This document shows, piece by piece, positions 5,723 to 46,386 of a stretch of DNA of 64,000 bases. A model generated the notes under the pieces. That model ran no database searches. It saw only the letters and a list, made by a program, of their open reading frames with translations, and had not been told where the DNA came from. This DNA comes from Amphiscolops sp. MND2022 (taxonomy: Eukaryota), in assembly GCA_964187785.1 (NCBI GenBank), contig OZ076409.1, positions 49,106,001 to 49,170,000 on the forward strand, written 5' to 3'. The position numbers and the translations under genes were made by a program. Each line of letters opens with the position of its first letter. The stretch's first letter is position 1.

Positions 5723-5784
5723 TTCTAAATCGTGAAGAATTGAATTGAGGTTGATTAGTCATGAGAAGAATTGGTTTAGGTGAT

Positions 5785-6215
5785 GGGGTGTTTTGAGATC
5801 GAATTTTTGTGTGATCAAAAAAGCGAGATCGAACTTGGATCGAAAATTTCGAGATCAAATTGTTTCGTTTTTGGTAAACTTTTTCTCCTGCAAAGCGTTG
5901 AAAAGCGTTTAAAGTATTTCAGGTACTTTTCTCCACCCGATATGGAGCCATATACGGTGTATGGACACTCGCCCTCACCGTCGCAAAGACCAGTTCTCAC
6001 TACGACCGCTTCGCGATCTCTGTTTCCGCTAGGTCTTTGCTCCTCTTCGAACTCGCTTAGCAAAATGGGAACATAAACGGCCCAAAGGGGTCGTGGGGCA
6101 CTAGAGGAAATGGGGGGCATATCTGAGGGCCAGAAACATTGTTATTTAAAAAAAACTAAGTTTTTGAAAACATCGATTCGATTTTCTTTTCTTCGACCAC
6201 TTTACTTCGATCTCT
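5785..6215 (+). mobile_element. Non-autonomous core-B element with GATCGAA arm arrays
   Basis: The ~170-bp core at 5958-6129 matches copies at 19380, 22925 and 24184. Arms carry GATCGAA/TTCGA(T/C)C repeats. Right terminus and TSD were not found. Confidence 0.6.
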
Positions 6216-6244
6216 GTGACAGATTGCATACTCAGTGACAGATT

Positions 6245-6720
6245 GAGAGTAAGTTTGTAAAAAAAAGATAGTATGTTCGTAGAAAAAAATACTACAAACC
6301 TACGCACCCATAGTAAGTTTGTAGGACCTTACAAATTTGCTTTCGAAAAACTTACTATAATCCAAAGGTAGACAGTAAAGTTGTAAAAAAACTAACTTTG
6401 TGGAAGTATGGTTATAGAAAACTGATAGTAAGTTCGTTGAAAAAGAGGTTTACAAATTGTACAATTTTACGCACCCAGAGTAAGTTTGCAGAATTCTACA
6501 AACTTGCTTTCTACACATTTACTCTAGTCCGCTGCGGCTCATCGTTCGATCAGTGCCGCCTAGCGAGGCGGATGGCCAACCTTGATGATTTTGTCGTCGT
6601 TGTCGTTTGGCTCAAAATAATAAACCAAGTGACTCGTTGAAAAAAATGAGCCACTTGCCTTCAAATCAAGTAACTTGTAACCAAAATTTTGCATAAAATT
6701 TTGAAGAAAAAGTGACATGA
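6245..6720 (-). mobile_element. Probable divergent relative (core C) with an AGTAAGTTTG arm array
   Basis: AGTAAGTT(T/C)G repeats at 6249-6490. ATTTACTCTAGTCCGCTGCGGCTC (~6517-6540) resembles the core-B block ATTTCCTCTAGTGCCCTGCGGCCC. Hairpin CCGCCT-AGCG-AGGCGG follows. Confidence 0.4.
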
Positions 6721-8738
6721 AAGTAGACTCAAAAGGAGTTTGAATTCTACTGATGCATATGTCAAAGTCATTAGCTTTTCATAGATTTTGCGTGCATCCC
6801 AAGATGGCCCCTTATTCATCGCCAGCCATGCGAAAGCTCTTTTGCGCCGATATTTTAGGTTTTCTTTCGTGGCCCTATGCAGCTTTCTTGACGAAAACGG
6901 AGTATACCGATGTGCACCGTCCCTTTTCCATAACTATTCAGCTGAAGTGTTGATTCTTGAGTAGTGCCGACCAACTCAAACGGGACGAGGCAGTCCTTGA
7001 ACAAAGATGCTTGAATAAGATATATTGGGTACCCACAGATAAACGGACGGTACACACAACTTGAGGATAACCTCTTGTCACGACCCGCTCCCGGTTGGTG
7101 TTTTACATGCCACGAGGGTATCCCCAAATTCAGAAGTGCAGTGGGCCATGGCTGATCGAAAAACTACTGAGTATATATATCAACTTACTTTCACTTAATT
7201 TGTAGCACGTTAAAGTACTAAATGCAAAAGGAAAATTACAACAAACGCTGTTGTTATGTAACATTTTCAAAAGTGATGTTTGACAAACCAAAACTTCCGG
7301 TCTATTATTTCACAACTAAAAGCCTCTACTTCCGGTCTCAGTCCGTACGGTTTTTCCATATCATTCCAAACAATTGGAAGAAATAAACAAATCAAATAAG
7401 ATTAATTGTTTTCCGCCTTGAAAAACAAAACAGAGATCAATATTTGAATCCGTGATCTGAACGGATCACATTGTCAGATCTAAAAAAGAAAAAGACGAAA
7501 CACAATGGAAAGGGCACAAAGTGTTTGACGGGGCTGTAAAAATCTATTCAGACTACAATTGCGTAATCTAAATAAATATTAACAAAATAATGGATGCGGC
7601 TTAGACTGGGGCCAGTGATTTGCATTTTCTATTTTTCCGGACCAAAAGCGTTGCACCTAAGACCAGCATATTTGCGCTCAAACTAGTAAGAATTATTCAA
7701 ATGACGTCACTAACAATGATTTGGAATGACTTCGTTGCTCCGCTATCCCTCCGTTGCTAGCTAACTTGCTCTAACCTTAATACGTACGGAGCAACTACGG
7801 AGCGAATAGTAAAGCTAAAGATTGTTAAGTTAGATATTACCAATCTTATTACGTACGGAGCAGTTACGGAGCAGATTGTAAGGTTGACACCAGTTAAGGC
7901 TGCGATAACTAATCTTGATATACACGAAATTCACGGAACAATTGGAAATTTAAAGTTCCAAAAACATTCTGCTCCGCTTACTTTCCGTCGTGCAATGGAT
8001 TTTTGTAAAAACAGTGCTGCAGGTTAAGAAAGGAGGATTGCCCATGTGTACTATCAGAAGTGCTCTCCTCTAAACCGAAATTATTCGGGAATATATAATT
8101 AGTTAGTTAGTATTATGTTCGATGATGCATTTGGACTGTGCTGAGTCCAAGTTATACATGGAAACCTTGTTGTTAAATTAATTATTGTTTGCTGATTCTA
8201 GGCATCATTTGTTCTTCCCATTGTATAGCTCGAACATTTTTCCGGCATTTTGAAATACGATTATCCCGTAAAGGCGTCGGAATCATTTTTGCTTCTCATT
8301 CTTTTGCGAAACTTGATCTGTTGCTGACTACACGAAGAATTATTGGTCACGCCAGCGTACTTTCTTCGGAAGAACTTTAACTAGACTTTTTTTGCTGCCA
8401 TTTCTTTGACTAAATTGGAAATAGAATTGTTGAACAGAAATGATTCCAACAGACACTCCCTAAAGGAGTCGAAATGAGGATTTTTCAAACCTGAACTAAT
8501 GATCGAAGGGCTGAAATAAGAAGGACGATTAAGCTCTTTTTAGTGAACAAAACCAGTTTTTAAGATTCCTAGGAATTTTTAGGTGAAGAACAAATGATGC
8601 TGAGAAAGTATATATATCTAGAGCACATGTAAATATACATTCAATCCTTTGCTGTTACGTGAATAGAACGTTGTAAACAAAACATTTTCTTTGAAGATTT
8701 TCCAGAATTCCAAAGAACTTTCTTCCTCTTTTTTCAAA

Positions 8739-9740
8739 ATGACTACTAGAAACCAGAAAAGGAAAGCTGTAGAAGAATTAGTTTCTGTTGACCAAGGGAC
8801 CCGTTTGAGTGGAAATAATCAGAGTGAAAACCCCGGTTTCCAGTCAAAATCTATAAAAAAGCTATTTTATAACAAGTGACTTTCTGGATTTGTCTATAAT
8901 TTTTAGGTCACTTGCTATAAAAAAACTATAGCAAGTGACCATCTATAATTTCCCTAAATAATAGCAAATGACCTGGTCCTGCTCGTCAGTCACGTGACCA
9001 AACTTTCATTCAATGAGCCAATCAAACTGAATAAAACGAATTCAGCACAAGCGACGAACTAATTACGATAACGTAGTCAGATATGTTCACATACTCCTAG
9101 TGCCATCCTCAAATCCAGGAGCGAAACGAAGCGGAGCGATGTGCCATATGGCCATGCCTCAATGGCGAAGGGAGCGAAGCGACCGAGCCATACAACAAAT
9201 ATGCCAACCTCTTCAAATTATAGTCTGAAATCAATCGCTGATATGAAAAGTTCTTTCGACGTTTTGAATAGTTTTGATTTTTTCGACGGTTTGTATATTC
9301 TACGATTTGAATGGTCACCATATCAGGTCACTTGCTATAATATTTTAGGTCACATACTATAATCTATATTATAGCAAGAGACCTGTGTATCTTATAGCAA
9401 GTGACCTGTCTATATTATAGCAAGTGACCTGTAGCGAAAATCCCGTAGTCGGAACGAGTAAATCGGCAAAGGTTCTAACTGAGAATTTAGAGGAAATAAA
9501 ATCAACTCTTAGGAAAGAGATTCACTCTGACCCCACAATACTCTTAGCTGAAAACCAAAAGGAAAAGCTCAAATTAATAGCATCTGTTGCCAAAAAAAAA
9601 CAAAAAAACTCTGACCGTTCCCTGAGAATCTGATTCTGAATCCGAAGACGTTCTGTCAGCAGTAACATCTACACCCGTAAAAGCTAAAACCACTACCACT
9701 ACTCTGAAAATTACTCCGGTAGACAGTCGTAACAACTCGG
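8739..9740 (+). mobile_element. Decayed gag-like N-terminal ORF of a probable LTR element, split by an insertion
   Basis: MTTRNQKRKAVEEL...SENP (8739-8834) joins in frame to VVGTSKSAKVLTENLEEIKSTLRKEI (9445 onward) once the insert and one TSD copy are removed. The gag assignment is by general resemblance only. Confidence 0.4.
8835..9435 (-). mobile_element. Non-autonomous core-A element with TATAGCAAGTGACC arm arrays and 9-bp TSD
   Basis: TSD GAAAACCCC (8826-8834) / GAAAATCCC (9436-9444). The core at 9070-9200 matches 16908-17042 in reverse. Confidence 0.7.
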
Positions 9741-10069
9741 GAATGTTTACAAATTTGAAACATTTTGTCACTGAAATGAAGCTGCTGACATTGTAATTGT
9801 GGTGGCTCGGTGGAAACTTGCAGGGGTCTTTCCACCTCGATAGACACTGAATCACGTTGTAAGTAGCTCCTTCTTTGAGAGCTGCGTAAATGTTCTTTTG
9901 CAGATTGTTAGTAAATTGAGATATCACGCGACACGTATTATGCCCAATTCCATTTATTCCGGCAGTGTGTAGTAGTCGCGGCTAATTCTCGTGGAAAAGG
10001 ACATTTGCGTCAGTTAACTAATTCGGCAAAATGTGACGCCAGATTTGCAATCACACGCACTCTGCATGT

Positions 10070-11703
10070 AGCGAAACCTCTCATCTAATCTTCGGAGATG
10101 AAGTAATTCAATCGCAACAGGGCTGTCAGCAAGGGGACCCCGAAGGTCCAGCTCTCTTCTCCGACACTATTCAAGACCTCGTTAGCCAAATGGTTTCGCA
10201 ATATTATGTTTGGTACCTCGACGACGAAAATCTTTCGGATCACATCGGACGGTCCTTGAGGACCCCAAACGAATCATTGCTAGCGCCGACGAGTATGGGT
10301 TGTCTCCCGAAAAAAAACTAAATGTTACCTGATTTTTCTCGGAAAATGTACCGAAAGTTCAAAAAAGAGACTAAAAACGCTTTCGAAGAAATTTGCCCCG
10401 GTATCAAAGTATAGGAACATGAGAATTTGGAAATTTCAGTGTCGCCAATGGGCGCAAATGCTCGTCGAGTCCAGTTGAACAAAAAATGATTGAATTGCAA
10501 AGACTCTCTGAAGATGTTACGAAATTCCCACTATGGTTTCTACCTGTTTAAGAACTGTTTCAGTCTACCGAAACTACTGTACTTTCTTCGCGCCAGCCCT
10601 TGCTTTGAAGAGTTGGATCTCTTACACCAATATGATTCCATTAACTGCAAATCATTGTCCAAAAGCTTTAATGTCAATTTTATTGAAAGCAGCTATACTC
10701 AGGCGATTCTCCCAGTCTCCAAAAGGAGCATAGGCATCACATCGGCTTCCCAGATTGCTCTTTCTGCTTTTTTAGCTTTAGCAACGGGCGCCAAATGTGC
10801 TCTGTCTTATATCCTCCCGGAAGACTATGTTGATGCATCTTTGAAAATGCATTAAATTTGTGGCTGACGAAGGCGAACCTATCAGAAGCACCGTCGGACT
10901 TCATCCAAAAACATTGGTCGTCTCCTTTGAGTGATGCTACTTTTGATCAACTTATAACAGACCTTGATGTGGAAAATGTCAGAAGATTGAACTCTTACCA
11001 AGACCCCTTTGGTTCCGCTTGGCTGAATGTTGTACCAAACAAAAATCTCGGTCTGAAGTTAACAGTTCAGCAACTGTGCATCTCGTTATCCCTTCGCCTG
11101 GGCGGGAAAATTTGCGAGAAACACACTTGCCGTTGTGGTAAACTTGTCGAAGAGAACGGACAACATGGTCTTTCCTGTGCCAAAAGCGCGGGACGTTTCT
11201 CGAGGCCCCACAACCTTAATACTCTAGTGAAACAGGCGCTGAGTTCCATCAAAGTTCCCTCAATTCTGGAACCAAATGGGCTGACCCGAACAGACGGAAA
11301 GGGCCCAGACGGAATTACCCTTGCGCCCTGGGAGGAAGGCAAGCAATTACTTTGGGTTGTTACTTGTGTCGATCTTCTTGGCCCCAGCAGAATAGAGAAC
11401 GGATCTGTTGCCAACCCAGGCACAGTAGCTGAGGATGCAGATGAATTGAGAGCAGCTAAGTACGTTTGTTTGACTGACATAGGATACATCTTCCAACCCT
11501 TAGCCTTTGAAATTCAGGGAGGAGTCGGACCTTCCACGTCCACGTTCTTAAAGAACCTGTGTAAAAAACTGTGCGTGTTGAACCAGGAAAATAGAGCCGG
11601 ATCAATTTTCAGGCAGAGACTCTCTCTCGCAATCCAGGCAGGCAATGCAGCCAGTGTAGTTGGAACGGTTGGCGACGAAGACCACTTAAGCGAACTTTAC
11701 TAA
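10070..11703 (+). mobile_element. 5'-truncated, decayed CRE-like non-LTR retrotransposon (RT plus CCHC plus restriction-like endonuclease)
   Basis: GCQQGDPEGP and VWYLDD near 10120-10225, LPKLLYFLR, SAWLNVVP, HTCRCG...HGLSC, (R/G)PDG...W.VT, and RQRLSLAIQAGNA in ORF 10858-11703. Confidence 0.85.
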
Positions 11704-11872
11704 TTTTGGAAAAACCACCTCGAGGAGGTAAACGTCAGAGATCATCACTCAGTGCAATTATCAACAAGCGTATTTGAGATGGTGTCATTGAGAAAAGACC
11801 GAAAACCGCAGCAGAAAAGCGAGTTAGATTGACGACTGTGTTCCATTTGCACTAAATTAGACAAAGGTAATG

Positions 11873-14835
11873 CGAGAGAGAGAGAAAAAACACTCTTTCA
11901 TTGTATAGGGATAGCTGGTGTCAGTATACAATAAGTGTAGATTGATTTATGCTGAAGCATAAATGATTTTTTCAAGTTTTACAGGGCGATAAATCAGGTG
12001 AAGCGGAAATCACGCCAAGTATGAGATGTATGGATAGGCATACGACTACTTTCAAAAGTTAGATGCTTTCTGAGACGACTTTTGATTGTGTGTAGACTTA
12101 TACTAGTGTCTCTCAAGTACAACGGTAGTGAGTTCCACTTCGAAGAAGAGTGATGAAAGAAAGAACTGAAGAGAGATACATGACTTCCCACGTATATTAT
12201 CTGATTAGTGCGATTGTTCCACCTAAAAATCGCCGTAGGTAATTTTAAAGTGCTCTGGAAGGCTTTTTTTAGTATTTTTGAGATATTGGAACAGAAATAC
12301 TAGAGATTTCAACTCGATAAGTTGCTTTATTCCAGTTATTTTCTTTTTTTTCTCTCAGATCACTCGACGATTTAAAGCTCGAACGGAAGTAGACAGATTT
12401 TAATGCCCAGTTCATCTGTTTCTCAAGGGAAAGTAGTAAAGGAGGGGATATTTGAGTGAAAAAAATCGCAGAGTATTCGAAATGACTGATTATTAGCGCG
12501 TGGAAAAGCATGACTAAGACTGTGGTCGGAAATTTGTGTTGTATAGATTCAATAGTTTTCATTCCAACTGCCATGTTTTTCAAAATCTTTTTTACTTGGG
12601 TTTGGAAAGTCAAGTGTTCATCTAACGTTATTCCAAGAGATTTACATTCACATTTCTTTTTGCTTTTTGACAACTGAAGAGCACACGACAACTGTTTCGG
12701 AGTCTAGCTGTCTCTTGTCATATTTTCGAGAAAAAGTTATGAATTCTGTTTTACTGCCATTCAAATGTAGTCGATGGGACTTAAAGTAACTTTCAAGTTT
12801 CAAAATATTTGTTTGCAAACATTGCAAAGCAATGTCAGGCTCCTAGTGACTACAAAAAAGCAAGCAATCATCGGCGTACTGGATAATGCAAGCATCCTCC
12901 GTTATCTGTCCAGTCAGGTCATTGACATATAGGTTGAAGAGCAGTGGTCCTAAAATAGTGCCCTGGGGAACGCCTTGTTTCAGTTCTATCCAATCCGATT
13001 TGACACCGTTCAATGAAACCTGCTGCAGTCTATCACTGAGGAAACATTATATAAAGTTGATGGCCGAAGATGAGAAAAAAAGAGACTTGAGTTTAGACAA
13101 AAGGATTTCATGTGAAAGTGGGTCAAAAGCTTTTGATAAATCCAGCAAGACTGCATGAACTTTTTTCCATCATGAATTTCCTGTTGAACCGATTCGGTGA
13201 AAAACAAAACAGCATCTTCTACTGATACTTTTTTCCTAAAACCAATTTGGAGTGGAGCGAGGAGATTTTTTTTTTCAATGTAAGCTGTAATTTGCCTATG
13301 AATACATTTTTCGAGGATTTTGGAGAACGTTGTTGTAATCGAAATGGGACGATAATTTTTGGGCTCTAGAATGCCATCTTTTTTGAAAATGGGGGTTATA
13401 GTCGCTCTCTTTAACATCGTAGGAAAGACACTTTCATTATTGCACTCATTCAATATGAATGTTAAGTGAGAAGTCAAAATTTGCTTTCCATCATTTATAG
13501 CCCAAGCGGGCACCTTACAAGGACCGGTAGGTTTGTTCGGTTTCAACTCATTGATGATATCGTAACAATCTTTCACTGTGATTGGACTAAAAGAGAACGA
13601 AGAATCACCGGGTAGGGAGGATGGAACTTCATCATTGATATTACCAAATTATTGACCAAGGTTCGAAAATATCAGGTTGAAATGATCGGCCATTTCCTTG
13701 TCATCAGCTATCATTTTACCGAAAGAATTTCTCACTGCTGCAAGATTGACCGACATTTTATTTTGCCCTCGGGCGGAATTTATGAAATTCTATCTTTCCT
13801 TAGCGGTGCACAGAGAGGAAAAACAGCTCCAGGCAAATTTCTCTTGCTTTTCTTTCAGTACCTTAGAAAGTTGATTTCTAAGTTTTGAGTACGTAGACCA
13901 GGTTTGAGCAGAGGTATTTTTACAGTATTCGTAGTAAGCTGCTTGGCGTGCCTGGGTTAAGGTTTTGCACTCGCAGTCATACCAGGATTCTTTGAAAAGT
14001 TTAGGGGTCCTTTTTTGGAGAAATATTTTTTTGACGGGTGCATGCTTTTCCACAACACTAGCTAACATATAGACAAACAGATTGAACATATCAGTAGCAT
14101 TCGAACAGTTATAGATTATAAACCAAGGGATATTCGATAGTGACAGACAGAAAGCGGCTTTTTGGTAAGTACTCAAATCGAACTTTTGCAAGATTGTGCA
14201 CTTCTGTTTTTCAGCGAAAACGTTTGTGAAAACTACTGAGCCAAATTGATCTGTTTTAAAAGGACGAGTGAACACAAAGCAATTACCGTCTAAGATGTTG
14301 TCAGCTATTATATAGTCAATGTGTGTGTTTGTAGTTTTACAGACACGCGTAGGTAAATTTGGGCTAGCTACGGAGAACCCATATGGTAATATGACAGTTT
14401 CTAGGTTTTCCCGTTCAAGTGGGGTGAGGTAGTCTAAATTGTAATCGCCCATCATTGTGATGTTTGCAGTTTGCACGTGGAGTTGTCTATATTTGTTTCT
14501 AATTGTTCAAGAAAATCATTTTGAAATTGTTTCATAGGATTATAAGTTACGTTAATCAACATGGTTTTCTTGCAATTTTTTGAGAAATCATTCCTACATT
14601 CTACTCATATGGAGTCGAACTTAGCTTTATCAAAAAGGTTGAGATCTTTTCGTTCCCTCGGAGCAAGTTTCAAAGGTACAAGGAGCATTACACCACCACC
14701 CTTTGTTTCGAATTTGCAGAACTTCGGTCACATCTGAAAAGCTCGTGGGTGTTCGAAGCTACATTCCAAAAAACCATGTCATCACTAGGAGTTAACTAAC
14801 TTTCTGAGATAAGGTAAATTATTAAGGCCGGAATC
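11873..14835 (-). mobile_element. Decayed APE-RT LINE (L2/CR1-group-like ORF2)
   Basis: EN motifs MMGDYNLD and TNTHIDYII; RT motifs KNYRPISIT, GVPQGTILGPLLF (~12940-12980) and YADD (~12870); many frameshifts; (TC)n-like end near 11873-11886. Confidence 0.8.
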
Positions 14836-16770
14836 AGAATGGCAGTAGGCGACGACAAGATTGCAGATTTCACTATCAACAACTACGCACCCCTCAAGCT
14901 GAAACATCCACAAAGGGAAACTTGCTCTGTTCCGGATCCCAAAGATATCGATGGTTTTTCAACCTCGGAGATTTTTGTCCACAAGGCTCTCATGTCCTTC
15001 CCCGATAGCTCTAGTGCAGGGTTGGATGGGATTTTGCCCCAAGTTTTGAAAACATTGACTGTCAAGTCGAACGGGCAAACTGTAGTGAATTTTCTCACAT
15101 CCTTAACAAATCTTGTGAGTGTCATTCTCGAAGGAAAAGTACCTTTCGAACTTCGGCTGTACTTCTTTGGTGCGAAACTAATTGCGCTGAAAAAGGCTGA
15201 TGGAGGACTTCGTCCTATCGCTGTATGCAATACCTTCTGCCGGTTATCCGCAAAATGTGTCGGATACCATGTCTTCGAATCACGTCAGGCAAGATATGGA
15301 AGTCGACAAGTAGGTGTAGGTTCAAAAAAGGGCGCTGAATTGGCCTCACATGTTTTCCGTTGTTTGATAGAAAGCCCCCAGCCCAAAGAAAATGTAATTT
15401 TGAAAATTGACTTTGAAAACGCTTTCAATTCAATAAACCGACAATTCATGCTAGAAAAAACATTTGAAACACACCCTGAAGTTTATAAGTACTCACACTC
15501 GGCGTACAGTCAACCAAGTTATCTTTTTTACAGTGATTCAGTTATAAAATTTCGTGAAGGGACCCAGCAAGAAAACACTGAGTCTCCAACTTTGTTTTCG
15601 GATTCCATTGAGTATCTGATTGACAGTTTGGAGTCGAAAATAAACTTATGGTACCTTGACGATGGAAATATAAGTGATGATTACAGAACCGTTTCGAAAG
15701 AACTCAAGAAATTAGTTGAAGCGGAAAAAACGCTGGGACTCAAAACTAAACACACTAAATGCGAAATGTTTTCCTTGGGGACAACACTGAAAATGTCGAT
15801 CGACAATTTCAACATCTTTCCAAAAATTTTGCCCCGGGATCAAAACACAAAGAAAGATGAACTTATCATTTTTGGTTCACAGCTCGGCCCGAAGTCACAA
15901 GCAGACTTATTGGAAAAGAAAATCAAAGAACTGGAAAATGTTAAAGGAATTGTTGCTAAATGCGCACTATGGTTTTTTATGTTGAAAAATTGGTTCAGTC
16001 TGCCAAAGTTGTTGTACTTCCTGAGAACCAGTACGTGTTTTAATCGTCCAGCTCTCTTGGAAAAGTATGACAAAACCGTACGCGATGGGCTTTCCGAAGT
16101 GTGTAATGTGAACTTCGACGATATTTCGAGTACTCAGCTGGCTCTGCCCGCTGAAATGGGTGGTCTTGGGGTGTCATCCGCATCATTAGTAGCACTTCCC
16201 GCCTTTTTGGCCTTAGCTTTGTGTGCGAGTGACTTTCTCACGACGATTTTCTCGGAAACATTCGAAGATGTTTCATTTACAAAAGCGCTTGAGAAATGGT
16301 TGAGTTTGACGAATGAACAGGAAAGTCCCCTCGATGGAAGACAGAAAAATTGGACACAAACTGTCTTCGTCAAAGATTTAATTTCTAGAATGGATGACAA
16401 ACGTTCGGAAGTTTTCAATGCTCATCAAGGTAAATTCGGGTCTCAATGGCTGAACGTCGTTCCTTGAAAGAACCTAGGCCTGAAACTTGATGATCAGCAA
16501 CTTCTGATTTCAATTGGTTTACGTCTCGGAGCCAACATTTGTGTTGCGCATACGTGCCATTGTGGTAAAAGAGTTGAACGGGACGGTTTACACAGTCTTT
16601 CTTGCACCGAGCGTGCTGGTCGCTTCTCACGTCATGCTACTCTCAATTCTCTCATAAAGCAGACGTTGGGATCTCTCGACTTGCCTTCAATGCTCGAAGC
16701 GCGCGGACTGTACCGAAACGATGGCAAACGCCCAGACGGTGTTACCATGATTCCTTGGGAAATGGGTAAA

Positions 16771-17151
16771 GCCTTTACAACAAACAACCGAGCCATACAA
16801 CAAATACGATAAAATTCGACCGCTTTCCATTCGATCCCTGCAATTCGATCGAAAGGTTCGATCGAATTGCAGGGATCGAATGGAAAGCGGTCGAATTTTA
16901 TCGTATTTGTTGTATGGCTCGGTCGCTTCGCTCCCTTCGCCAAGTAGCAACATTGAGGCATGGCCATATGGCACGTCGCTCCGCTTCGCTTCGCTCCTGC
17001 ATTCAGAGCACTAGGGGTATGTGAACATATCTGACTACGTTATAAAAATTTCGATCTAAGTTGTTTCGATCCCATTCAAAAATTTGGTATGTCGACCTGA
17101 GGACTAACTCTGATTTTCGATCCCGTTCCTTCGACCTATTTCCGCCCACCC
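16771..17151 (+). mobile_element. Rearranged core-A element with TTCGA(C/T)C arms, containing a perfect palindrome
   Basis: Core at 16908-17042. The right end TTCGACCTATTTCCGCCCACCC matches 24608-24629. Confidence 0.65.
16787..16923. repeat. Perfect inverted repeat, 67-bp arms, 3-nt loop (AGG)
   Basis: 16787-16853 is the exact reverse complement of 16857-16923. Confidence 0.95.
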
Positions 17152-17355
17152 GAATTAAAGTTTTCCGACCACCCGGCAGGTTGTCACAGTTGTGGATGCT
17201 CTTGCACCCAGTCGCCCGAATCAAGGCTCTTTATCTAACCCGGAAACCACCGCCACCGAGGCTGAAGCGCGTAAAATTGAGAAGTATCGCGAATTAATAG
17301 ACAACGGATACATTGATACATTTTTCAACCGGTGGCCTTAGAAGTACAGGGTTCT

Positions 17356-17405
<50 letters not shown>

Positions 17406-18964
17406 GATGTGGATTTACAGCTTTCGCTGATGGGATTGCTCCCAAATTCTTTCTAACCTCTTCGTCCCCTGTTTCTACCTTGTCCACAGTCGCACACCCT
17501 TAACCATGTACAAGAGTTGTCTTCGTCGAACTGGTTATTGTAGTGTCTCCACAAATCGCAGAGAAGTCTGTCTTTGAGACCCATTCCTTTGCCAATGTCA
17601 AAGCAACTATTAACCTTGTTCACGATCTGACAATTTCTAAAGAAAAATTCGCTGCGGCTTCTCTCAGTCCGGGGGATTTTCATTTGATAGTTCATGGGTC
17701 TGCGTGCGCTGCAAGTCATTTTGGAATGTAAGTTAAAAATGTTCGCCAGGTTTCCTCTAGTAAGCGATGAAAAAAGTAGGAGATCGTTCATCTGCACAAA
17801 CATTGGTAGCGGCAAAATGTTCAGTAGCCTCAAACTGTTAGCATAGCAAGTCTGTTTGTTGCCCATTATCCATTTCACAGCTTTCCTCTGGAGCCTCTCT
17901 AAAGCGTTCATGATGGCTTTTGATTGTTTGGCACAAAAAAGTCTATAAGGGACGGTCGGAAGCACCAGCGATTTGTACAGGTTCAGCTTAGTGTTAGATT
18001 TAACATTGTACGCAATGTTCCGCCTGAGGGAGAACAAAACATTATAGGCTTTTTTCAACCTACTGCTAACATGTGCTGACCAGTTGAGATCTTTTTTTTA
18101 CAAAGATGCCAAGGTCTTTAACTTCTTCTGTGTCCTCAAAGTTGATGTTTCCGACTTTATATTGACAATTTGTACCTCTGAACTCAAGTTTGTAGCATTT
18201 GTCCGGAGCCAAGCTCATTCCATTGGTGTCAACCCAGTTCGAAATGGCTTCTAAGTCGGATTTTATTTGCGCTTGTGTCTTCGCGACAGCTAATATTTTT
18301 AGATCATCTGCAAATATGTAGGAATCACTAAAATTCAGTGCTTCGGGGAGGTCGTTTATGAAAATACAGAACAAGAAGGGACCCACGAGAGATCCTTGGG
18401 GCACTCCATTTGTAATTTCTAATTGCTGAGATATAGTGTTCCCAACTCAAACGTACTGGGTTCGTCGTTCCAAGTAGTCACAAAGAATATCGAGAAAGCA
18501 GCCTCCAACGCCAATTGCACTCACTTTCTTCAGCAGCTCATAATGCGGTACTCGGTCAAATGCTTTCGCAAAGTCGGTGTAAAAAGCGACCACTGTATCA
18601 CTAGAATTTTTATCCAAGGCTTCATGTATGTCTTTCAAGAATTTCAGCAAGTTTGATTGAACTGATCTTCCACGGACAAATCCGTGCTGGTTTCTGGAGA
18701 GAAAGAAAGAGAAATGAAGAAAGAGAGGATCATACAAGCACTTTTTGAAAATTTTGCTGTCAATATTCAGAAGCGACACTGGTCTGTAGTTCTTTACTAA
18801 TTGTTTATCGCCCTTCTTGTAGACAGGCACGATAGTAGCATCTTTCCAACATCTAGGAAGTGTTCGTAGCCTTTTAACATTCTTGAATAGTTTGTTCAGG
18901 GTAGTACTCATTTCAACAGCTGTTTTTTGGAAAAGTACTGGGGGAAATTTGTTAGGGCCTCTTT
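17356..18964 (-). mobile_element. 5'-truncated LINE (CR1/L2-group-like RT) with a (CAA)17 tail
   Basis: KNYRPVSLL, DFAKAFDRV, PQGSLVGPFLF and IFADDLK in ORFs 18447-18911 and 18066-18404. (TTG)17 on + at 17356-17406. TCTTT is shared at both junctions (17353-17357, 18960-18964). Confidence 0.85.
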
Positions 18965-19198
18965 AGGCGAGAGCAGTGAAATTTTCATCACGCGTCTCTG
19001 TAAAATGCTCTGTCGTTCGCACGACGATCAACGAGCTGGCAGCTTTTTGAAGCAGCGGATTTCAATGGCTCTTCAGATCGGCGGGTGGCTGTAAAAAGGT
19101 CGAACTTTTCTGGTCAAAAGGACAGAGGTCGAACCTTTCGATCAAATTGCAGGGATCGAATGGAATGCGGTCGAAGTTTATCGTATTTGTTGTATGGC

Positions 19199-19690
19199 GC
19201 AGTGTACGCCTTTGATCTAATTCATTAGGTCTAATGGAATTAGATCTAACTTTTAGATCTAATTGAGGTCTAATTTTGGGTCTAACTTTCAGATCTAATT
19301 TTATCTAAAATACTTAGTCTAACCCCTTTATGATCTAATATGTGATCTGAAAGCAAAAATATAATGTGGGGCATGTGCGATGTATGCACGCTCGCCCTCA
19401 CCGTCGCGAAGATCAGCTCCCAATACGATCGCTCCGCGATCTCCGTTCCCGCTAGGTTTTTGCTCCTGTTTGACCTCGCTTAGCAAGATGGGAAGATAGG
19501 CGGCCCCAAGGGGCCGCGGGGCACTAGAGGAAATGGGGACATATCCGAGGCACGTTTCATACTTTATATCACTTGTTAGTTTCAGATCCTCCTTGACTTA
19601 TTGTTTTTCATAAATTAGATCAAATTAAAAGATATTTTTGGACCTGAGTATTTAGATCAATTTATTTAGATCTCAGTTTTGCCCCCTCTC
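19199..19690 (+). mobile_element. Core-B element with (A/G)G(A/G)TCTAA arm arrays
   Basis: Core at 19380-19557; GATCTAA/GGTCTAA repeats on the left and TTAGATC repeats on the right; ends in CCCCC just before the gap. Confidence 0.65.
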
Positions 19691-19890
19691 NNNNNNNNNN
19701 NNNNNNNNNNNNNNNNNNNNNNNNNNNNNNNNNNNNNNNNNNNNNNNNNNNNNNNNNNNNNNNNNNNNNNNNNNNNNNNNNNNNNNNNNNNNNNNNNNNN
19801 NNNNNNNNNNNNNNNNNNNNNNNNNNNNNNNNNNNNNNNNNNNNNNNNNNNNNNNNNNNNNNNNNNNNNNNNNNNNNNNNNNNNNNNNNN
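19691..19890. other. Assembly gap (200 N)
   Basis: Run of N characters. Confidence 1.
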
Positions 19891-22637
19891 AAGTTGAAGG
19901 TCTGTTAGTCATAGCCTCAAAAATTATGAACCTTTAGTAGTCGAGTACTCTCTTGAAAGTGTCGCTTCCTTTCTGTGCTTCTTTCGAAACGTCCAGAATC
20001 TATGATGAAATTTTTCAGGTTCGTGGTCCAGGTAAGTGAATAGATGTTTCCTGCGGCAAAATCGGGCGCACGAAACTGCTCGTACAGGGGGCAGAAGAAT
20101 AAGTAGTGCGTGACTGATTCTGCCTCTACTCGACAAGGGCAGAGCGGTGTCTCCGCTCGCCAAATTATTTACGCATACTCTGCCAGTTCCTCGTTGCAAT
20201 TCAAAAGGAGCTTGTTGATAGTTCTTTCTAGGTGTCTGCTTGTCGTTTTTGGATAGGCAATCCCTTCCAATTCAATTTGAGTGATTGACCAATCCAGTGG
20301 GGTAGTCGTGAGCGCGTTCTTGAATATTCTGTTCCATCTACTTCTCAGGTACTCATTGCAAGTTGACACCATGTAACAATTTATTGCTCCTGTGACTTTA
20401 TAAAAATCGTCAATGAGGTTTTTATTGCTTCTTATTTCCGGCAATTGACATTTCCGGTACAGTTTCCACAATATGTCCTGCTGTTGAGAGAGCTTGATTC
20501 CAAATTTAATAGTGATTATGTCAATTTGTAATTGCATAGGCGGGAGACCGCACAGTATTTCTGCTGCCAACTGGTCGAATTTCGTACTTGTACCTATGAT
20601 AAGTTTGAGCGCGGTGTATTGAAAACGGCTGAGTGCTTGAACGTGTTTCCTGGCGCACACAGGGGCCGCGTACAGAAGTCGGGGGAGCACTAGAGTTTTC
20701 TAAAGCTTTATGAGCGTTGCTTGCCTTAGACCCCAATTAGAGCCGCAAAACTTTTTAAATATGTTCAGCTGTTTAGCAACTTTCCCTTCTACCTGCTGTA
20801 GATGTTCGTTGAAATTCAGTTTGTCGTCCACAATCAATCCCAGGATTTTTGTGCTTCTGGTGACCTTACATGCCTCGCCGAAAAACGTCGGAGCGTGCGG
20901 GTACTCAGAGTTGAGGTAGATTATTGACGTCTTGTCACCATTTACTGCGAGCCTCCAATTTTTACACCACCGTTCCAGTTGTTTTAGAATAACTTGACAG
21001 TTTAGGTAGACTTGGGTTTCAGTGTATCCTGTCACTAGGAGGTTTCCATCGTCAGCGAATTTGAACTTCTTACAGTTGAGGTTTTTGAACATGTCGGAAA
21101 CGAAAAAAATGAACAGAATTGGTGAAAACACACTACCTTGTCGAAGTCCATCTTTGACTCTAAAGTATTGGCTTCTCAGATTACCGATTTCTATGCTGAG
21201 TTGTCGGCTTTTCAAAATTTTTCCAATCAGTTTAATGAATTTACCTCTAACTCCCGATTGATAGAGTTTTTGGAGCAGTCCATTGATCCATACGGAATCG
21301 AAGGCCTTCTCAAAGTCGATGGATATCAAGGCGCCACTTTTCCTGCTCTTTTTCACTTCTTGACATTCCATTTTCAACCTATACAACGACCTTACTGTGC
21401 TCTTGTGAGACTGGAAGCCTTCCTGCTCTTCATCTAACAGGTTGAATTTTTTGAAGAAGCTTCTCAACCTGGCATCCAATAATCTTTCCACAATTTTTCC
21501 GATATAGCTGGAGATTGTTATCGGCCGATATGCTGACGGTGTCGTGTAGTCTGTTTTACCTTGCTTCCTCAGAAATATCACTTTTGAATGGTTCCACGGC
21601 CAGTGATTTTCATTCAGTGTTTTGTTTGCAATGTGAAGAAGGACTTCTTTATATCGGAGTCCTGCGTACTTGATCATTTTGGGATGGATGTTGTCGTTAT
21701 CGAGAGACTTTCCCGATGTTTTCAAAAAACGCAGAATGTAGTCCAGTTCTTCGGAGGTAAAGTCGCTGTTAAACCACCTATCACTTTCTAATTCGGGTCT
21801 TTCGGAATGTAGGGATTGTTGAAAAGTATTCTCTACGTGTAGCTTGAACTCTTCGTTGAAGCTGAGTTTCTCCAAATGCTTTCCAGTGAAAAAAGTTTCA
21901 CGAAATATATCTGCTTTGTCTTTTTCAGCAAAGTGGAATTTGTTCCCTTTCAACAACGGGGAAACTCCAGCATCTTCTTTGTCCGTCAAAAGCTTATTGA
22001 CGCGCTTCCAAAATTCTTTTGAGTGACTATCGTTAACGTCATCGATGGAGCTTTTGAAGTGTTCGTTTGCTTTATCCTTTACCAGATTTTGAAAGGATTG
22101 TTGAAGCTCTCTCAAAAGCTTGAGGTTTTGCGCCGAGCTACGGTATCGGTAATTTTTCCGTGCCTTACGGAGCTCTCGGCTTTTCGAACTTAGTTCTTCG
22201 CACCAATACGGTTTCGAGAAGCAACAGACCTTCTTCACTGGAATATGTTGTTCTGAAGCAGTTTGAAGCGCTTCTTTCAGTAGCAACCATGAGGAATTGC
22301 CGTCCATTGTCTTGAAATCTATCCTTTCTGTTAGAAGGCTTTCTACACACTCGTAAAATCCTTCCCAATTGGCGTTCTTTAGATCTTTTTTAAGTTTGAC
22401 TTCTTTTGTGTCTTCTCCTTTCATGTTCAGCCATACGGAAAGGTGTCCCCTCGTCGGAGCACCAGTGAATAATTCTGTCTCGTGGTCTACCATTATGAAG
22501 TTTGTGATTTCAGTTATTCTCTCTGACGTGATAAAAAGGTCGATAACACTGCTCCCGTTGGTTGACACAAAAGTGGGTTGTCCGTCGTTGATGACATTTA
22601 GCACTCTGGAGGAGTCGTGTAGTGCGTTCACTAGAGT

Positions 22638-23608
22638 GGGGAAACGGAAATCGGACTAAAGAAATTGAACTAATGGAATTAGGACTAACATGCTCAAAAT
22701 TTCTGAAACGTTCATGTGAAATAGAACTAATTTCGTATTTTCTCAAACAGGAATTAGAACTAATTTGTTACTGGAATTGGAACTAAAAACAGGAATTAGA
22801 ACTAATTTGTTACAGGATTTGGAACTTAAAAAAGTAGGAATAAGACCTAAAATGCGGAATGAGACCCAAGGGGAGAACGGAATAGTATCTAAAGGAATAA
22901 TATCTAAAGTTTTTCAAAGTATAAAACGTGCCTTTGATATTTCCCCATTTCCTCTAGCGCCCCGCGGCCCCTTGGGGCCGCTTATGTTCTCGTCTTGCTA
23001 AGCGAGGTCGAACAGGAGCAAAGACCTAGCGGGAACGGAGATCGCGGTGCGATCGTAGTGGGAGCTGGTCTTTGCGACGGTGAGGGCGAGCGTGCATACA
23101 CCGAAAATGCCCAACATTGAAAGGGGAAAGTACTGAAAATTTTGTGAGACATTTACGAAAGGTAAAATTTTATTCGTGAATGAAATGATTTGAGATCTGA
23201 CACTTTTATAAAATCAATAGAAGGAAGAAAATAATGATTGTTTTAATTTTATGTTGATCAATTGTATTACGTTATTTTTGTACTACTTTCAATGAGGTAT
23301 AAGTCATTTCCTACTTTCATGTTCCACGTTTCCAATTTGAATTTTGTACCATGTTTTTATCCGCTTCTGCGTTTTTTTGTTGTACCACTTTTATGTTGGA
23401 TGTTTACAATTGAACATATCGTGATTTTGTCAATTTGATCTACGTAATTGCAATTTTTCCGTGCCAAAAGTTGTTTTAGTCCTATTTCAATTAGTCCTAT
23501 TTCCATTAGTTCTAAGGCGGCACTAAAAAAGAATTAGTCCTATTTCCATTAGTCCTATTTCAGTTTTGATTATTAGTCCTATTTCATTAGTCCGAATTCC
23601 TGTCTCCC
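22638..23608 (-). mobile_element. Core-B element, 971 bp, GGACTAA/GAACTAA arm arrays, perfect 9-bp TSD
   Basis: TSD CACTAGAGT (22629-22637, 23609-23617). Imperfect TIR GGGGAAACGGAAATCGGACTAA versus GGGAGACAGGAATTCGGACTAA. Core at 22925-23100. Confidence 0.9.
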
Positions 23609-23964
23609 CACTAGAGTTCTGCCGTGCTCATTCGTTGATCTATCTCCCCACATTGGGTGTCTAGCATTAATGTCACCCGCTAGCAGAAGTTCGAGGTTGT
23701 GTCTAGTGGAAAAGGCCGCCGCTTCCTCGAGTTGATTGATCAAAGTTTGTAGTTTCGGTGAGCTGGTTGGTGGCATGTAGACGGCTCCCAGTGAAATTGG
23801 TATTCTGTTGATAGTGACAATGGTCCAGACAAAGTCAATCGGGGCGTTGAAGATTTTCGGTACGTGTGTGATATCTTTCCTGACTAAAATAGAAACTCCT
23901 CCCTGACCGTTCGTCCCACAGTAGCTAATGGCAGAATAATTATTGATTTCATGTGCTGCTAGTT

Positions 23965-24510
23965 GTGGGCACAAACTACGATCTAAGGAATAAGATCGAA
24001 ACGCACTTCTGTAACTAAGATCTAAAGAACTAAGATCTAAATGTCATTTTTCGTAACTAAGATCTAGAGAATGCCAGCTCCCGAATCGTACCGAAAGTCT
24101 AAATTTCAGACGTTATTCCCGTTTTAATTTCCGTTATTCCCATTTTTTAGATGTTACGGTAAAGTATAAAATGCTTTAAAGTATAAAACGTGCCTCAGAT
24201 ATGTCCCAATTTCCTCTAGTGCCCTGCGGCCCCTTGGGGCCGCTTATGTTCCCATCTTGCTAAGCGAGGTCGAACAGGAGCAAAGACCTAGCGGGAACGG
24301 AGATCGCGAAGCGATCGTAGTGGGAGCTGGTCTTTGCGACGGTGAGGGCGAGCGTGCATACACCGTATATGACCCCACATTATTCCTTAGACGTTATTTT
24401 AATTCAATTTAGACCTTAGTTACGGTGCATGCTTTTTAGATCTTAGTTCTTTAGATCTTAGTTACGAAATTTCTTTAGATCTTATTCCTTAGACCTTAGT
24501 TGCGGTCCCC
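23965..24510 (-). mobile_element. Core-B element, 546 bp, AACTAAGATCTA arm arrays, perfect 9-bp TSD
   Basis: TSD CTGCTAGTT (23956-23964, 24511-24519). 33-bp imperfect TIR ending TCTAAGGAATAAGATC. Core at 24184-24365. Confidence 0.9.
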
Positions 24511-24881
24511 CTGCTAGTTCTCGGTGAGTCTCCGTTAAAAGCACTGCATGGGGTTTTCCTTGGTTCAGGTAAAAAGATAAAGCTGTTGAGCTATGACTGC
24601 TTCTTCCTTCGACCTACTTCCGCCCACCCTAGATCGGCAATGCGGCCTGTGTTCTAGGAACTGTGAGCGACAGAAATGCGTTCGAAGAATTTTATTACAT
24701 ATTTTTTATTTAAAAAAACACTTTATAATTGCAGCTTAAAAAAATTTCTACCGGTCGACTGCGATAGTTGCTGGTATGAGTAGTTTGCTGGTTGTTATTT
24801 TTTGTAACTGGTCTACTGGGTTAGTGGCTAGTATGGGGTTCCCTACGTTCGTTGCACACCACGGGTGTGTGTCTTCTCCCC

Positions 24882-25677: not shown

Positions 25678-35467
<9,790 letters not shown>

Positions 35468-39012: not shown

Positions 39013-39528
39013 TTTATTGCTACGAAAAATGATTATTTTTTGGCTGTTAGGAAACAATTATTTGAAACTATTGCAATAAATTGAAATGCCAATATATTTT
39101 TTACAATGCTGTCTGCTCTGTAATGACTCAGACCATTAACAGAGTACCCTAAAATTGATTGCTTAGCCCTGTACCCAATATAGAACCTAAAAAGCAGAAG
39201 CTCAAAATTTATATTTATTGCTACGAAAAATGATTATGTTTTGATTGTTAGGAAACAATTATTCAAAACTATTGCAAAAATTGAAATGTCAATATATTTT
39301 TTTACAATTCTGTCTGTAATGACTCAGACCATTAACAGAGTACCCTAAAATTGATTACTTAGCCCTGTTCCCAATATAGAACCTGAAAAGCAGCTCAAAA
39401 TTTAGTATATTAATTGCTACGAAAAATGATTATTTTCTGGTTGTTAGGAAACAATTATTTAAAACTATTGCAATAAATTGAAATGTCAAATGTTGTTTTA
39501 CAATGTTGTCTGTAATGACTCAGACCAT
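39013..39528. repeat. Tandem repeat, ~200-bp unit, ~2.6 copies
   Basis: ATTGCTACGAAAAATGATTA...TCTGTAATGACTCAGACCAT recurs near 39015, 39217 and 39413. Confidence 0.9.
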
Positions 39529-41174: not shown

Positions 41175-41333
41175 TGGAGGACAAGGAACAAGTAGCAAAA
41201 GCAGAAAATCCATAAACGTTATTAAAACCTCAAGAAACTGAATCGCAAAGAATGATTCTTTGCAATTCAGTTTCTTGAGGTTTTAATAACGTTTATGGTT
41301 TTTCTGCTTTTGCTACTTGTTCCTTGTCCTCCA
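41175..41333. repeat. Inverted repeat, 79-bp arms, 1-nt spacer, 2 mismatches
   Basis: 41175-41253 versus 41255-41333. Confidence 0.92.
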
Positions 41334-43047: not shown

Positions 43048-43221
43048 CAGTAGGGGGTGTTTATAACGGAGTGCTTTATAACGACGAGCGTTTATAACGA
43101 CTATTTTCTCCAAATTTCTGTCATATAACAAACGCTTGTAACGACAATCTTTATAACGACGGTTTTTATACCGACATTAAAATTAAGTGCCCCTCGGGGT
43201 CGTAATAAAAGCCCCCTACTG
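43048..43221. mobile_element. Tc1/mariner (pogo/Tigger-like) MITE
   Basis: TA on both sides; TIR CAGTAGGGGGTGTTTATAACG versus CAGTAGGGGGCTTTTATTACG; internal TTATAACGAC repeats; inserted in a TTTCAACC array (42985-43240). Confidence 0.85.
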
Positions 43222-45206
43222 TATTGCATTTTCAACCGATTTAATTTTTTTAGATTCCAAGAAATTTCCAATGTGAATAAACTTCATCCGAATTACTATA
43301 TGGAAGTTCTTTCCCTCTAAATTTTGCAGAAATAGCTGTTTTTTTTCGGATTCGATGCAGATAAATTAAGTTTTAGTCTGCTTGAGTTGTTGAAAACGCT
43401 GTGTGGTTTTCGGCGTGAAATCGGTCTTTTTCCCGTGTGTTGCATCTGTAATTTTGACTGGAAATCCAGACCGTGAATTTCTGCCATCTCTACCCCTGAC
43501 TGACGAGGACGACAAGTATCGCGCATTTTTCTGCGCTGAAGTTTTAAAAAGTAGAGCGGCACTGTAAAGTTAGCCCCGCTATTTTCCTTTCGTAAAGTAA
43601 AATACGCTGATTGAAAATTTAAGACTTTGAAGATACGGAGGATGTTGCTTGGCGTTGTAGCCTAGGCCTAAATAACTCCTAAAGGTTCATTTTCATGTTG
43701 AAGAAGACAACCGGAGATGTTTATCTTCAGGTGCATTCCCGAACAGCTGCTGTTTCAAAGTGAAGCAGGATTAGATATTTAGTTTACTTTTCACTTCATT
43801 CACCAATAATGACTGGATGCAAAATTAATGGGAATTACATCTTCACGAAGGATCGAGGAAGTCAGCCTGGAATTATCGATACAACTCAGATGGGTTTACA
43901 TCTAATTCTCAAATTTTTCCATGGAATGCAATTAAGCTTTTTACTGGTAATAGTTGCGTCGGTTACCTGCTGGTGAAAAATAGCACCTATGTGATGGTAT
44001 TAGATGATTTTCCCAAATCAGTTCGATTAGCTTGCTTTTAACACTTGTGAATCGACTGGAATTAATATCATCAGTGGTACTGCATTGGACGTAGCTTCAC
44101 TCTGTTATTCTGGTAAAATTGATGAACATATATCGCTCTGGTGCTAACGTTGAATAACTTGACTGTTTTGTAACGAGATACAGGACGATATTAACTACGA
44201 ATGATAGTTAATAGTAAATTAGACTTCTCTGGTCACTGCAAAATCAATGCGATGGAATGTTTCACATTCGCAGTCCTTAGTTTTTTTTTTTTAAAAAAAT
44301 TCGAGCATGACAAGGAATGCAATGTGCCTGAAAACGAAGTTAAGCATTGAAAAGTCCGAAAGTTATAATTTGCCAATTATGCGTCTGCGAGTGCGAATGA
44401 GTATGTGTCTATTTAAATTAGAATTACTTTCGCTGAATGTTGCTCAATTTTTCTGTTCCGTCAAATTTGAAGTTTAGATGCTAGAACTAATTTCATTTTT
44501 ACTTACCTAATTCTCCTTCCGTTATTACGTTGCTATTCATTCTTCGATCTAATCAAAGGTAGTCAGTCATTCGTTGGTTGTAGATGCTGTTTATATCAAC
44601 CCATGCTAGTTAATAAATGAGGTAAAAATGATGCATTCATCGTAAGGATTGTCACTGTGCCTTTGCTATCGTTTTTGTTGTTGGTCATTCCACTTTGAAT
44701 CTGATTGGTCAACTAAATGTATTTGATTGGTCAAGTATGCTTCATGTTGCCCTGTATAAGCTGTTCCCTGATTGGCTTAAAAGTTTGCAATATCAGTTTG
44801 CACTTATCCCATCAAAATCTTGAATGTCGGCACTTGACCAATTGAATCTTTTGGACAAAGTTTGTTGGTTTTCCACGATTTGTGAAAATATTTTTTCCGG
44901 GATCTTTTTGGATTTTCTTTCTTTGTTAAATCGATTTGGTACGTTTTATGTACTATAAACTTTGCCATCAGTTTTGGATGCGAATTGGCGGAAAACCAAC
45001 TCGTGTTGTCGAATGTAACTATTTCCATCTCGTAAGCCATCACCCTCTTCTCATTCTTCCAACCAATCATATTTCAGTTATTGTAGTATACCACTCACTC
45101 ACCTCCATCAAATTATGACCCAGTTGCTATTTCTAGTCAGAAAATAATGGATGGGTGCATTTTCAATTAAGATATCGCTATTTTCAAGTTTCAAAGTAGT
45201 TCCAAA

Positions 45207-45407
45207 CAGGGGCGGTTTAAAGGGGGGTGCGGGGGCGGCGGCGGCCGCCTGCCCCCTTGGAGAGATGTATGGAATGAATTGATGTAACAGCCGGTAAAAT
45301 GGGCCGAGTGTTCCTACTTTCAAATAATCAACTGGTGCTTTCGTTCCGGTGCGCCCCACTATTTGAAAATCCGCCCACCCGTTGAGAAAATCCTAAAACC
45401 GCCCCTG
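45207..45407. mobile_element. hAT-type MITE
   Basis: Perfect 12-bp TIR CAGGGGCGGTTT; 8-bp TSD GTTCCAAA / GTTCCCAA. Confidence 0.85.
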
Positions 45408-46386
45408 GTTCCCAAGTTTCGTGAATCCAATTATTATAAAAAGGTAATACTTAAAATGAATCGCTTGTATATTTGATCGAAGCGGAATTAGTTTGAATGC
45501 AGCGACAAGAAGTAGCAGCTGACGACAATTTTAATTTTTCATAAGCTGAGATGACAAACCTGTACTTCATGCTTTCATTCGTTATTCTCCGACTCTTAAT
45601 AATTGAACTTCGTTCCTTTTTTGCCATACCTTCTCAATATTTTCCCAAAAATTTCTGTACCGAAGTTGAATTCGGAACAAAATATCTGTTTTTGTGTCCT
45701 TTTTGAATTTTCCCTAAAATGCGAAAAAGCTTTGGTTTTAGAGTCGAGTTTATCTAAATATGTAAATATTAATCTCAACGCCTGTGGTCATGATTTGTTT
45801 TCTAGATTAATGTTTCCAGGATCTAGCGATGGTTGAATCCTTGGCCTCAACGGGTGTTGTGAGATTAATTCTGTACTATATTTCAGTTTGTCCACGCCTT
45901 ATACTTCATCATGGGTCTATGTTAATTGATTACTCCAATTAATAATCTAATCAAGGTACCTAAATACTAGATAATGAGAATGACTGAGGATGTGGTTGTT
46001 AATTATATACGAAGCAATGACCTAATATGATATGAAGTCTTTCTATTCCAAATGTTGAAGCGTTTTCAATCACAAATTATTTTTGCTTTTGTCTTCTCTT
46101 TTAAGGACTATAAATTTCAAATAATAATGTTTGCAATTGAAAAATTTTATCTCAACTATCAAAATTTAGTTTTTCCTTCGTAACCTTTTATTTATTCTCA
46201 ACAAAGATTAGAAAAGGAGCATTGAGGGTACGTTCAATGAATAATTTTGAACTATTGACTCGGTTATAAGAAAACTATGGAAAAGATTGAAACAGCAACG
46301 GTTCATGATAATGTCAATTCTACTCCACTACTTTTTTACTGAATGTATCATGGTTGTAGTAACACAGGTCAATACAGTGTTTTTAA

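Follow-up and report, generated by a model that had tools for sequence, protein, structure and literature searches.

One non-coding core in many arm families of foldback-type non-autonomous transposons, and its possible hand-over by nested insertion

A 64,000-nucleotide stretch of the Amphiscolops sp. MND2022 assembly GCA_964187785.1 (contig OZ076409.1, positions 49,106,001 to 49,170,000; here called the window, with position 1 as its first letter) holds a group of insertions in which one of two cores, A or B, lies between inverted arms of short repeats. Together with copies recovered outside the window, these insertions show that the same core is borne by many arm types. One non-coding cassette across many arm families of foldback-type non-autonomous transposons is unusual, and no account of a core common to different arm families was found in the open papers searched. 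The reading we favour, at slightly better than even confidence, is that this shared core, rich in guanine and cytosine (GC), is cargo that nested insertion, with re-mobilisation, hands from one arm family to another. The window itself is eukaryotic and repeat-rich, has 40% GC and contains open reading frames (ORFs) of long interspersed nuclear element (LINE) type and of other retroelements.

Cores, arms and elements in the window

Cores A and B and their remnants had been placed in the window by a first-pass annotation, and BLAST and nhmmer recovered all of them. Core B occurs four times (B1, 5950-6130; B2, 19370-19565; B3, 22915-23110; B4, 24175-24375; 84-94% alike) and makes up about 1.3% of the window; core A occurs twice (A1, 9068-9201; A2, 16904-17043; 85% alike). 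R1 (47871-47994, minus strand) is a decayed relative of core A with both end blocks, and R2 (53392-53452, minus strand) is a remnant with the CTAG-side block, 13 bases of which are identical to B4; R2 has a second copy at 56855-56915 through a tandem duplication. The GC content of the cores is 51-57%, with core B at 57%. The annotation had also proposed that A and B are homologous at both ends. This holds for A2 and B4, whose CTAG-side blocks align with a score of 29, reached by 0 of 500 shuffles, and whose TGTATG-side score was reached by none of 1000; in the remaining seven A/B pairs the likeness of the end blocks was weaker (p 0.01-0.20).

Several identities were considered for the cores themselves. 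Tested as a short interspersed nuclear element or a known RNA family, they gave no Rfam match at gathering score and no tRNA gene. A strongly structured RNA was not supported, as z-scores for folding as RNA were unremarkable (between -0.6 and -2.2 in core B, between -0.4 and +1.0 in core A and R1) and one of 43 predicted pairs showed a compensatory change among four copies. On one strand of core B, a frame stays open by chance in all four window copies; a coding role for it was dismissed on 19 synonymous versus 69 non-synonymous differences in six pairs, the lack of a Pfam match, and flanking frames that vary. Examined as a captured host-gene fragment, which is the Pack-MULE criterion, the core interior showed neither a Pfam match nor coding constraint.

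Four insertions bear target-site duplications. B3 (22638..23608, minus strand; GGACTAA/GAACTAA arms; ends matching 19/25) and B4 (23965..24510, minus strand; ends matching 18/25) have perfect 9/9 duplications, at 22629-22637/23609-23617 and 23956-23964/24511-24519, and both were inserted into a LINE with endonuclease and RVT_1 domains (19891..24599, minus strand). That LINE lies in turn inside an outer element of the A2 family (19083..24629, plus strand), which consists of a left arm with the first 20 bases of core A (to ~19200) and a right end at 24600-24629, also contains B2 and a gap of N letters, and has an 8/9 duplication at 19074-19082/24630-24638. A1 (8836..9436, minus strand) has arms of TATAGCAAGTGACC units, a spacer between core and arm, and a duplication at 8827-8835/9437-9445 that matches 8/9 and is possibly 10 bp long. 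For the 9/9 and 8/9 cases, the chance of such a duplication at two fixed ends is 6e-6 and 1.5e-4. Excising B3, B4, the outer element or A1 restores the frame of the host retroelement in each of the four cases. The four 9-bp duplications of the first-pass annotation are thus perfect in B3 and B4 and 8/9 in the outer element and A1; the G-rich termini that it gave all four do not extend to A1, whose ends match 8/25, so that 3/4 duplicated insertions have matching G-rich ends. In the A1 spacer, words at 8980-9030 are of a kind that we take to be E-box-like and CCAAT-like, and a similar pair of words is readable in the flank of P0431 and P0436, of another arm class.

No duplication could be upheld within the window for B1, B2 or A2, and none was found there for R1 or for the element at 6230. 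Of the first three, B1 is truncated, B2 meets the N gap and the left end of A2 is rearranged. B1 (5785..6229, plus strand) has a GATCGAA left arm, a core at ~5949-6130 and a right arm cut off at 6229. B2 (19200..19690, plus strand), with GATCTAA arms and core B at 19361-19582, is fused directly to the outer element's truncated core A, and its right end meets the gap at 19691-19890. A2 (16771..17183, plus strand) has kept its right arm; in place of the left one stands a 72-bp inverted copy (16782-16928), and 16 target bases have been lost. A2 and the outer element form a single family, with arm bases matching 41/44 and 25/26. Copies at the DNA level were available from contig pieces of one sequencing run, X1, all other outside copies being translations only. 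X1 holds an independent copy of the B1 type, which spans 5784-6229 with 64 differences at another host site, and empty sites for A2 and for the outer element. Next to B1, a second array element of another motif (6230..6560, minus strand) carries only the CTAG-side core block (6516-6538), a weak likeness of 18-19 matches in 22-23 bases whose score was reached by 3-4 of 500 shuffles.

The arms had been described as inverted arrays of motifs that differ between copies. They are indeed inverted motif arrays, and five of the six motifs proved to be variants of one heptamer, G[AG][AT]C[GT]AA, which forms the arms of B1-B4, A2 and the outer element, A1 alone using another. In 1912 arm bases this heptamer occurs 53 times inward and 6 times outward, the window mean being 0.91 per kb per strand, and all heptamer-arm elements in the window bear a core or the start of one. 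Left and right arms align over 77/92 positions in B4, 57/66 in B3 and 51/60 in A1. Arm alignments between elements extend over just 20-61 bases, so the arms are not colinear from one element to another. Within the window only A1 and A2 show one core with unrelated arms.

The proposed Mutator/foldback-type anatomy was borne out by target duplications of 8-10 bp in 4/7 named elements (B3, B4, the outer element and A1) and by inverted arms of subterminal repeats. Their motif arrays reach ~200 bases, the longest colinear inverted match being 92 bases against a criterion of >100 bp. The elements are likely to be non-coding cut-and-paste transposons moved by transposases of Mutator/foldback type; a Pfam scan of 7 of the 41 listed window ORFs found no transposase. 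Merlin elements offer a comparable anatomy, with 8-9-bp duplications, 5'-GG ends, tandem repeats and at times very imperfect ends, as here (PMC8101967, in the part available to us). Both ends start with 5'-GG beside an 8-9-bp duplication in B3 and the outer element, one end does in B4, and neither does in A1, a point of difference from Merlin. The assignment to Mutator or Merlin is drawn from anatomy, and a transposase would separate the two.

The anatomy of core B also bears on an origin by rolling-circle transposition. In B4 (24185..24375, minus strand) the TGTATG block is followed by a 6-bp stem with a 3-base loop that sits on a long inner stem. An 18-base GC palindrome stops 6 bases short of CTAG, perfect in B2-B4, imperfect in B1 and missing from A1 and A2. 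A palindrome shortly before CTAG is the geometry of a Helitron 3' end, and the core could be an independent Helitron- or HINE-like cassette that inserts into the middle of foldbacks without duplication. Core A in A1 and A2 is sharply bordered and lacks a duplication, and Helitrons end in CTAG and make no target duplication (PMC4067079, in the part available). However, all six cores continue for ~35 conserved bases beyond CTAG, where a hairpin and CTAG should give way to target sequence. Core A has no perfect stem of at least 6, the borders of core B fade gradually, and subterminal inverted repeats are 5-7 bases long when exact and 7-10 with one mismatch, whereas at least 11 bp are called for (PMC4067079, same part). 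Among the 259 core B protein matches introduced below, 4 start at frame positions 3-4 near CTAG, in a search that favours full-length matches, and those inspected are still core-like upstream. Since the sequence runs on past CTAG and has no such subterminal repeats, the core does not qualify as a Helitron or a HINE, and we regard a rolling-circle cassette as improbable.

One core, many arms

Gene callers record chance frames such as that of core B, so the core frames could be used as tags for copies outside the window; all counts obtained in this way are lower bounds. A core B profile matched 1113 of 2410 candidates, and the 120 listed among them were all ENA entries, none with a Pfam domain. 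The profile also matched 347 representatives, of which the 150 listed are no longer than 257 residues. The core A frame matched 270 of 285 candidates (120 listed). Single clusters of core-bearing proteins have up to 102 members.

For core A, arm classes were set by short signatures in the 120 listed copies of 270, giving classes with dissimilar arms of 86, 12, 6 and 3 copies and leaving 13 unclassed. The core consensus of these classes differs at 0, 0, 0 and 1 of 29 residues, and that of the unclassed copies at 0. In the largest class, which is the family of A2 and the outer element, divergence is 5.4% in the arm and 6.3% in the core (80 of 86 copies scored), a comparison for which the matches had been ranked on the core.

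For core B, flanks were taken from 259 proteins, namely the 120 listed profile matches and 139 new representatives. On the TGTATG side, 210 of the 259 flanks gave 12 clusters of at least three (153 members) and 48 smaller ones, and the core consensus differs between clusters by 0-3 of 53 residues. For the CTAG side the corresponding figures are 10 clusters from 197 flanks and 0-4 consensus differences. The clustering was unsupervised and arm motifs were left unnamed, and some clusters represent spacers beside the core rather than arms. Labels on both sides were available for 93 copies and formed 26 combinations, one class having 7 partners. The flanks include those of B1, B2, B3 and B4 type and several other repeat motifs. 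The suggestion that the core is common to several arm lineages was therefore strengthened, as many more arm classes were found than the window holds. In the same 259 copies, CpG sites of core B were no more variable than other sites (0.079 versus 0.105, p 0.17), a hint that there is little CpG methylation in the lineage.

It had been proposed that the core was kept or swapped across lineages whose arms diverge quickly. Equal divergence of arm and core within one family, together with a near-identical core between dissimilar families, favours swapping over fast arms. Interiors of A and B differ freely from each other, yet each is near-identical across unrelated arms, which is best read as recent transfer.

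Nested insertion and probable hand-over of the core

Ends of the A2 family provided a view of where these elements land. Of 80 ends seen, 74 have a readable flank of at least 10 residues; 12 of these adjoin core B, at scattered positions and in both orientations, and one adjoins core A. Another 11 (2 of them weak) adjoin a host non-LTR (non-long terminal repeat) retrotransposon with an RVT_1 domain, which in the window lies at 14818..24720 (plus strand), where A2, part of a LINE and the outer element break it up, and which we take to be CRE-like from its C-terminal motifs. Shuffled flanks gave 0.3 matches. A further 11 ends adjoin other arm motifs, recognised by signature without a control. 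Since the CRE-like host is struck about as often as core B, the preference is likely to be a general one for GC- or CpG-rich DNA; the host region has 48% GC, and five of six insertion flanks in the window have 41-51%. The C-terminal region of this host was struck repeatedly, by A2 and the outer element (window 16400-19082) and, near 16700, by the copy of B1 type found in X1; 9 clear flanks among the protein matches come from it as well.

A second class of protein (P0173, P0218, P0219, P0234, P0236, P0241 and P0243) joins a whole arm-only unit to core B and then to part of the same arm, and this composite has 7 different outer flanks. An intermediate of this form would be expected had a new family inserted next to a core and later carried it along. 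In the hand-over that we propose, every transposase would bind its own arm repeats, as the Muta1 transposase binds subterminal repeats (PMC5499845, in the part available to us). Insertion would favour GC-rich DNA, and the cores supply plenty of it; GC-rich DNA is a target of Mutator insertion and is taken up by Pack-MULEs (PMC5861414 and PMC3310237, in the parts available). An incoming element would land within or next to a core, an old or inner end would then be lost, and two compatible ends now flanking the core could be excised together, founding a new family. Pack-CACTA elements are described as capturing DNA between neighbouring copies after one end is lost (PMC6379663, available part). 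Each capture would multiply the copies of the core, which would in turn become a more frequent target.

The same patterns might have arisen differently, if gene conversion between neighbouring copies, which number in the thousands, or in part a chimeric assembly had made the cores alike, with no families born by capture. The window does contain near-perfect fold-back joins (16782-16928 and 41175-41333), a tandem duplication of 99.97% identity and an N gap, and left and right flanks of the core are mixed. However, arms are matched and duplications perfect in both B3 and B4, 80 copies of the A2 family switch to a different flank right at the terminus, one composite occurs at 7 sites, and X1 independently has a B1-type unit and empty sites. 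We consider conversion or chimerism an unlikely source of the pattern.

Several observations weigh against passage of the core by nested insertion. No transposase was tied to any arm. Outside X1, the further copies are translated chance ORFs, in which neither synonymous changes nor full arms nor duplications can be seen, and they may span several related species. Flanks based on ORFs favour stop-poor, GC-rich DNA, which inflates the nesting excess by an estimated two- to three-fold; the single readable flank of B1 has 35% GC, and rice Pack-MULE flanks are not GC-rich in the available parts of PMC5861414 and PMC3310237. Linkage of core variants with the two flanks lacks a clean decay across core B. 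Between B1 and its X1 copy, substitutions number 27/135 in the flank versus 7/77 in the core (40/168 rows), which is what fast arm drift would give. Lastly, a neutral relay leaves unexplained why both end blocks persist in A, B and R.

This persistence leads to two readings in which the core is more than cargo. Selection may act on the end blocks common to A, B and R, which might, for instance, assist transposition. The core could then be a selfish cassette without ends of its own, which attracts new elements or makes them transpose more and, with selection acting on the element, hops across unrelated transposase lineages as a parasite of non-autonomous transposons, with the TGTATG and CTAG blocks as its working parts; we entertain this tentatively, at well below even confidence. 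Translations show arm-only units that have both ends but lack a core, which suggests that the elements do not need one. The other reading, which is close to that of the first-pass annotation and which we find rather doubtful, is that the core is a functional cis-module (a transposition enhancer, host-factor site or promoter) under selection, while arms turn over quickly with their transposases. It agrees with the survival of both end blocks among the otherwise dissimilar cores A, B and R, with the CTAG-side block beside the array element at 6516-6538, with the core or core start in every heptamer-arm element of the window, and with a flank divergence about twice that of the core in B1 versus its X1 copy; internal sequences also promote transposition in Ost35 (PMC3660474) and mPing (PMC9921582), in the available parts of both. 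It fits less well with equal arm and core divergence in the largest family, with the arm-only units, with unremarkable folding and 1/43 compensatory pairs in four copies, and with A and B interiors that differ freely from each other but hardly vary among dissimilar arm families, pointing to recent transfer. A cis-module and the relay by nested insertion can both be true.

Surrounding sequence, known systems and significance

Other features of the window include a tau-tubulin-kinase-like gene at 26604-34131 with long low-complexity exons, whose named relatives are animal proteins; its named matches are flatworm proteins at 66-68% identity. Two ENA proteins match a kinase exon at 96% and 86% identity, so related assemblies are present in the protein collection. 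The tandem duplication noted above, of 3463 bp at 50914-57841, doubles remnant R2 and is either very recent or an assembly artefact. The fold-back joins of 79 bp (41175-41333) and 72 bp (16782-16928) have 1-3 bases between their arms. A tandem array at 39013-39528 has 2.6 copies of a 196-bp unit, and a modular repeat family (D1, D2, D5, D6) with AAGGGTCCCC and TTTTCGGCAC units and other shared blocks is spread over 27205-59519 in both orientations. A small MITE (miniature inverted-repeat transposable element) without a core, at 43048-43224, has CAGTAG...CTACTG ends and TTATAACG arrays and is presumably Tc1/mariner-like; a GC-rich MITE-like unit at 45207-45410 has the ends CAGGGGCGG...CCGCCCCTG. 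Three exact core patterns gave nothing in prokaryote genomes, exact-pattern scans of JGI metagenomes were likewise empty, and no match was confirmed in viral contigs, where one scan gave 154 pattern matches. A search of sequencing runs listed a single run, containing a 0.06 share of the words, but no RNA run; this has no bearing on expression.

Sea-urchin TU elements are modular foldbacks. The closest case to the elements described here is Tm1-HH, of the Tm1 Mutator/Foldback elements of root-knot nematodes. In the available part of its source (PMC3169594), Tm1 has 9-bp duplications and composite arms with 13-15-bp repeats of varying number, as here, and Tm1-HH comprises non-coding members with a conserved, hairpin-bearing interior. 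In contrast, Tm1 combines one arm type with several interiors, the reverse of one interior with many arm types, and has a known Phantom-like transposase, whereas no transposase was identified for the present elements. In Aedes aegypti, Muta1 likewise has 8-9-bp duplications, a GGG start, subterminal repeats (bound by its transposase) and a non-autonomous member with unequal repeat numbers at its two ends, as here; an interior shared across families is not described in the part of that source available (PMC5499845), and the present elements do not show clear palindromes at their ends. Pack-MULE and Pack-CACTA elements resemble this system in the uptake of GC-rich DNA between ends, in extra inner ends and in capture from a neighbour after an end is lost, but they carry many pieces of host genes where a single non-coding, repeat-derived cassette appears to have been taken up repeatedly here (PMC6379663, PMC3310237, PMC5861414, available parts). 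Stowaway Ost35 and mPing have non-coding interiors that raise transposition and work with exchanged ends (the engineered 14T32); they are single families of other superfamilies, and natural exchange between families is not described in the parts available (PMC3660474, PMC9921582). The core, also a non-coding interior, could raise transposition likewise.

It is the ends that define non-autonomous DNA transposons, and what lies between them is deemed dispensable or a one-off capture. Here a single interior spans many end types, and apparent intermediates of its hand-over are preserved. Similarity clustering of repeats will, in such a case, merge families that are moved by different transposases, which calls for caution. 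Should the core prove to increase transposition in combination with several types of end, it would amount to a portable enhancer. The system allows testing of whether an interior alone is a unit of selection, and it offers a direct, countable model of the birth of MITE families from nested insertions.

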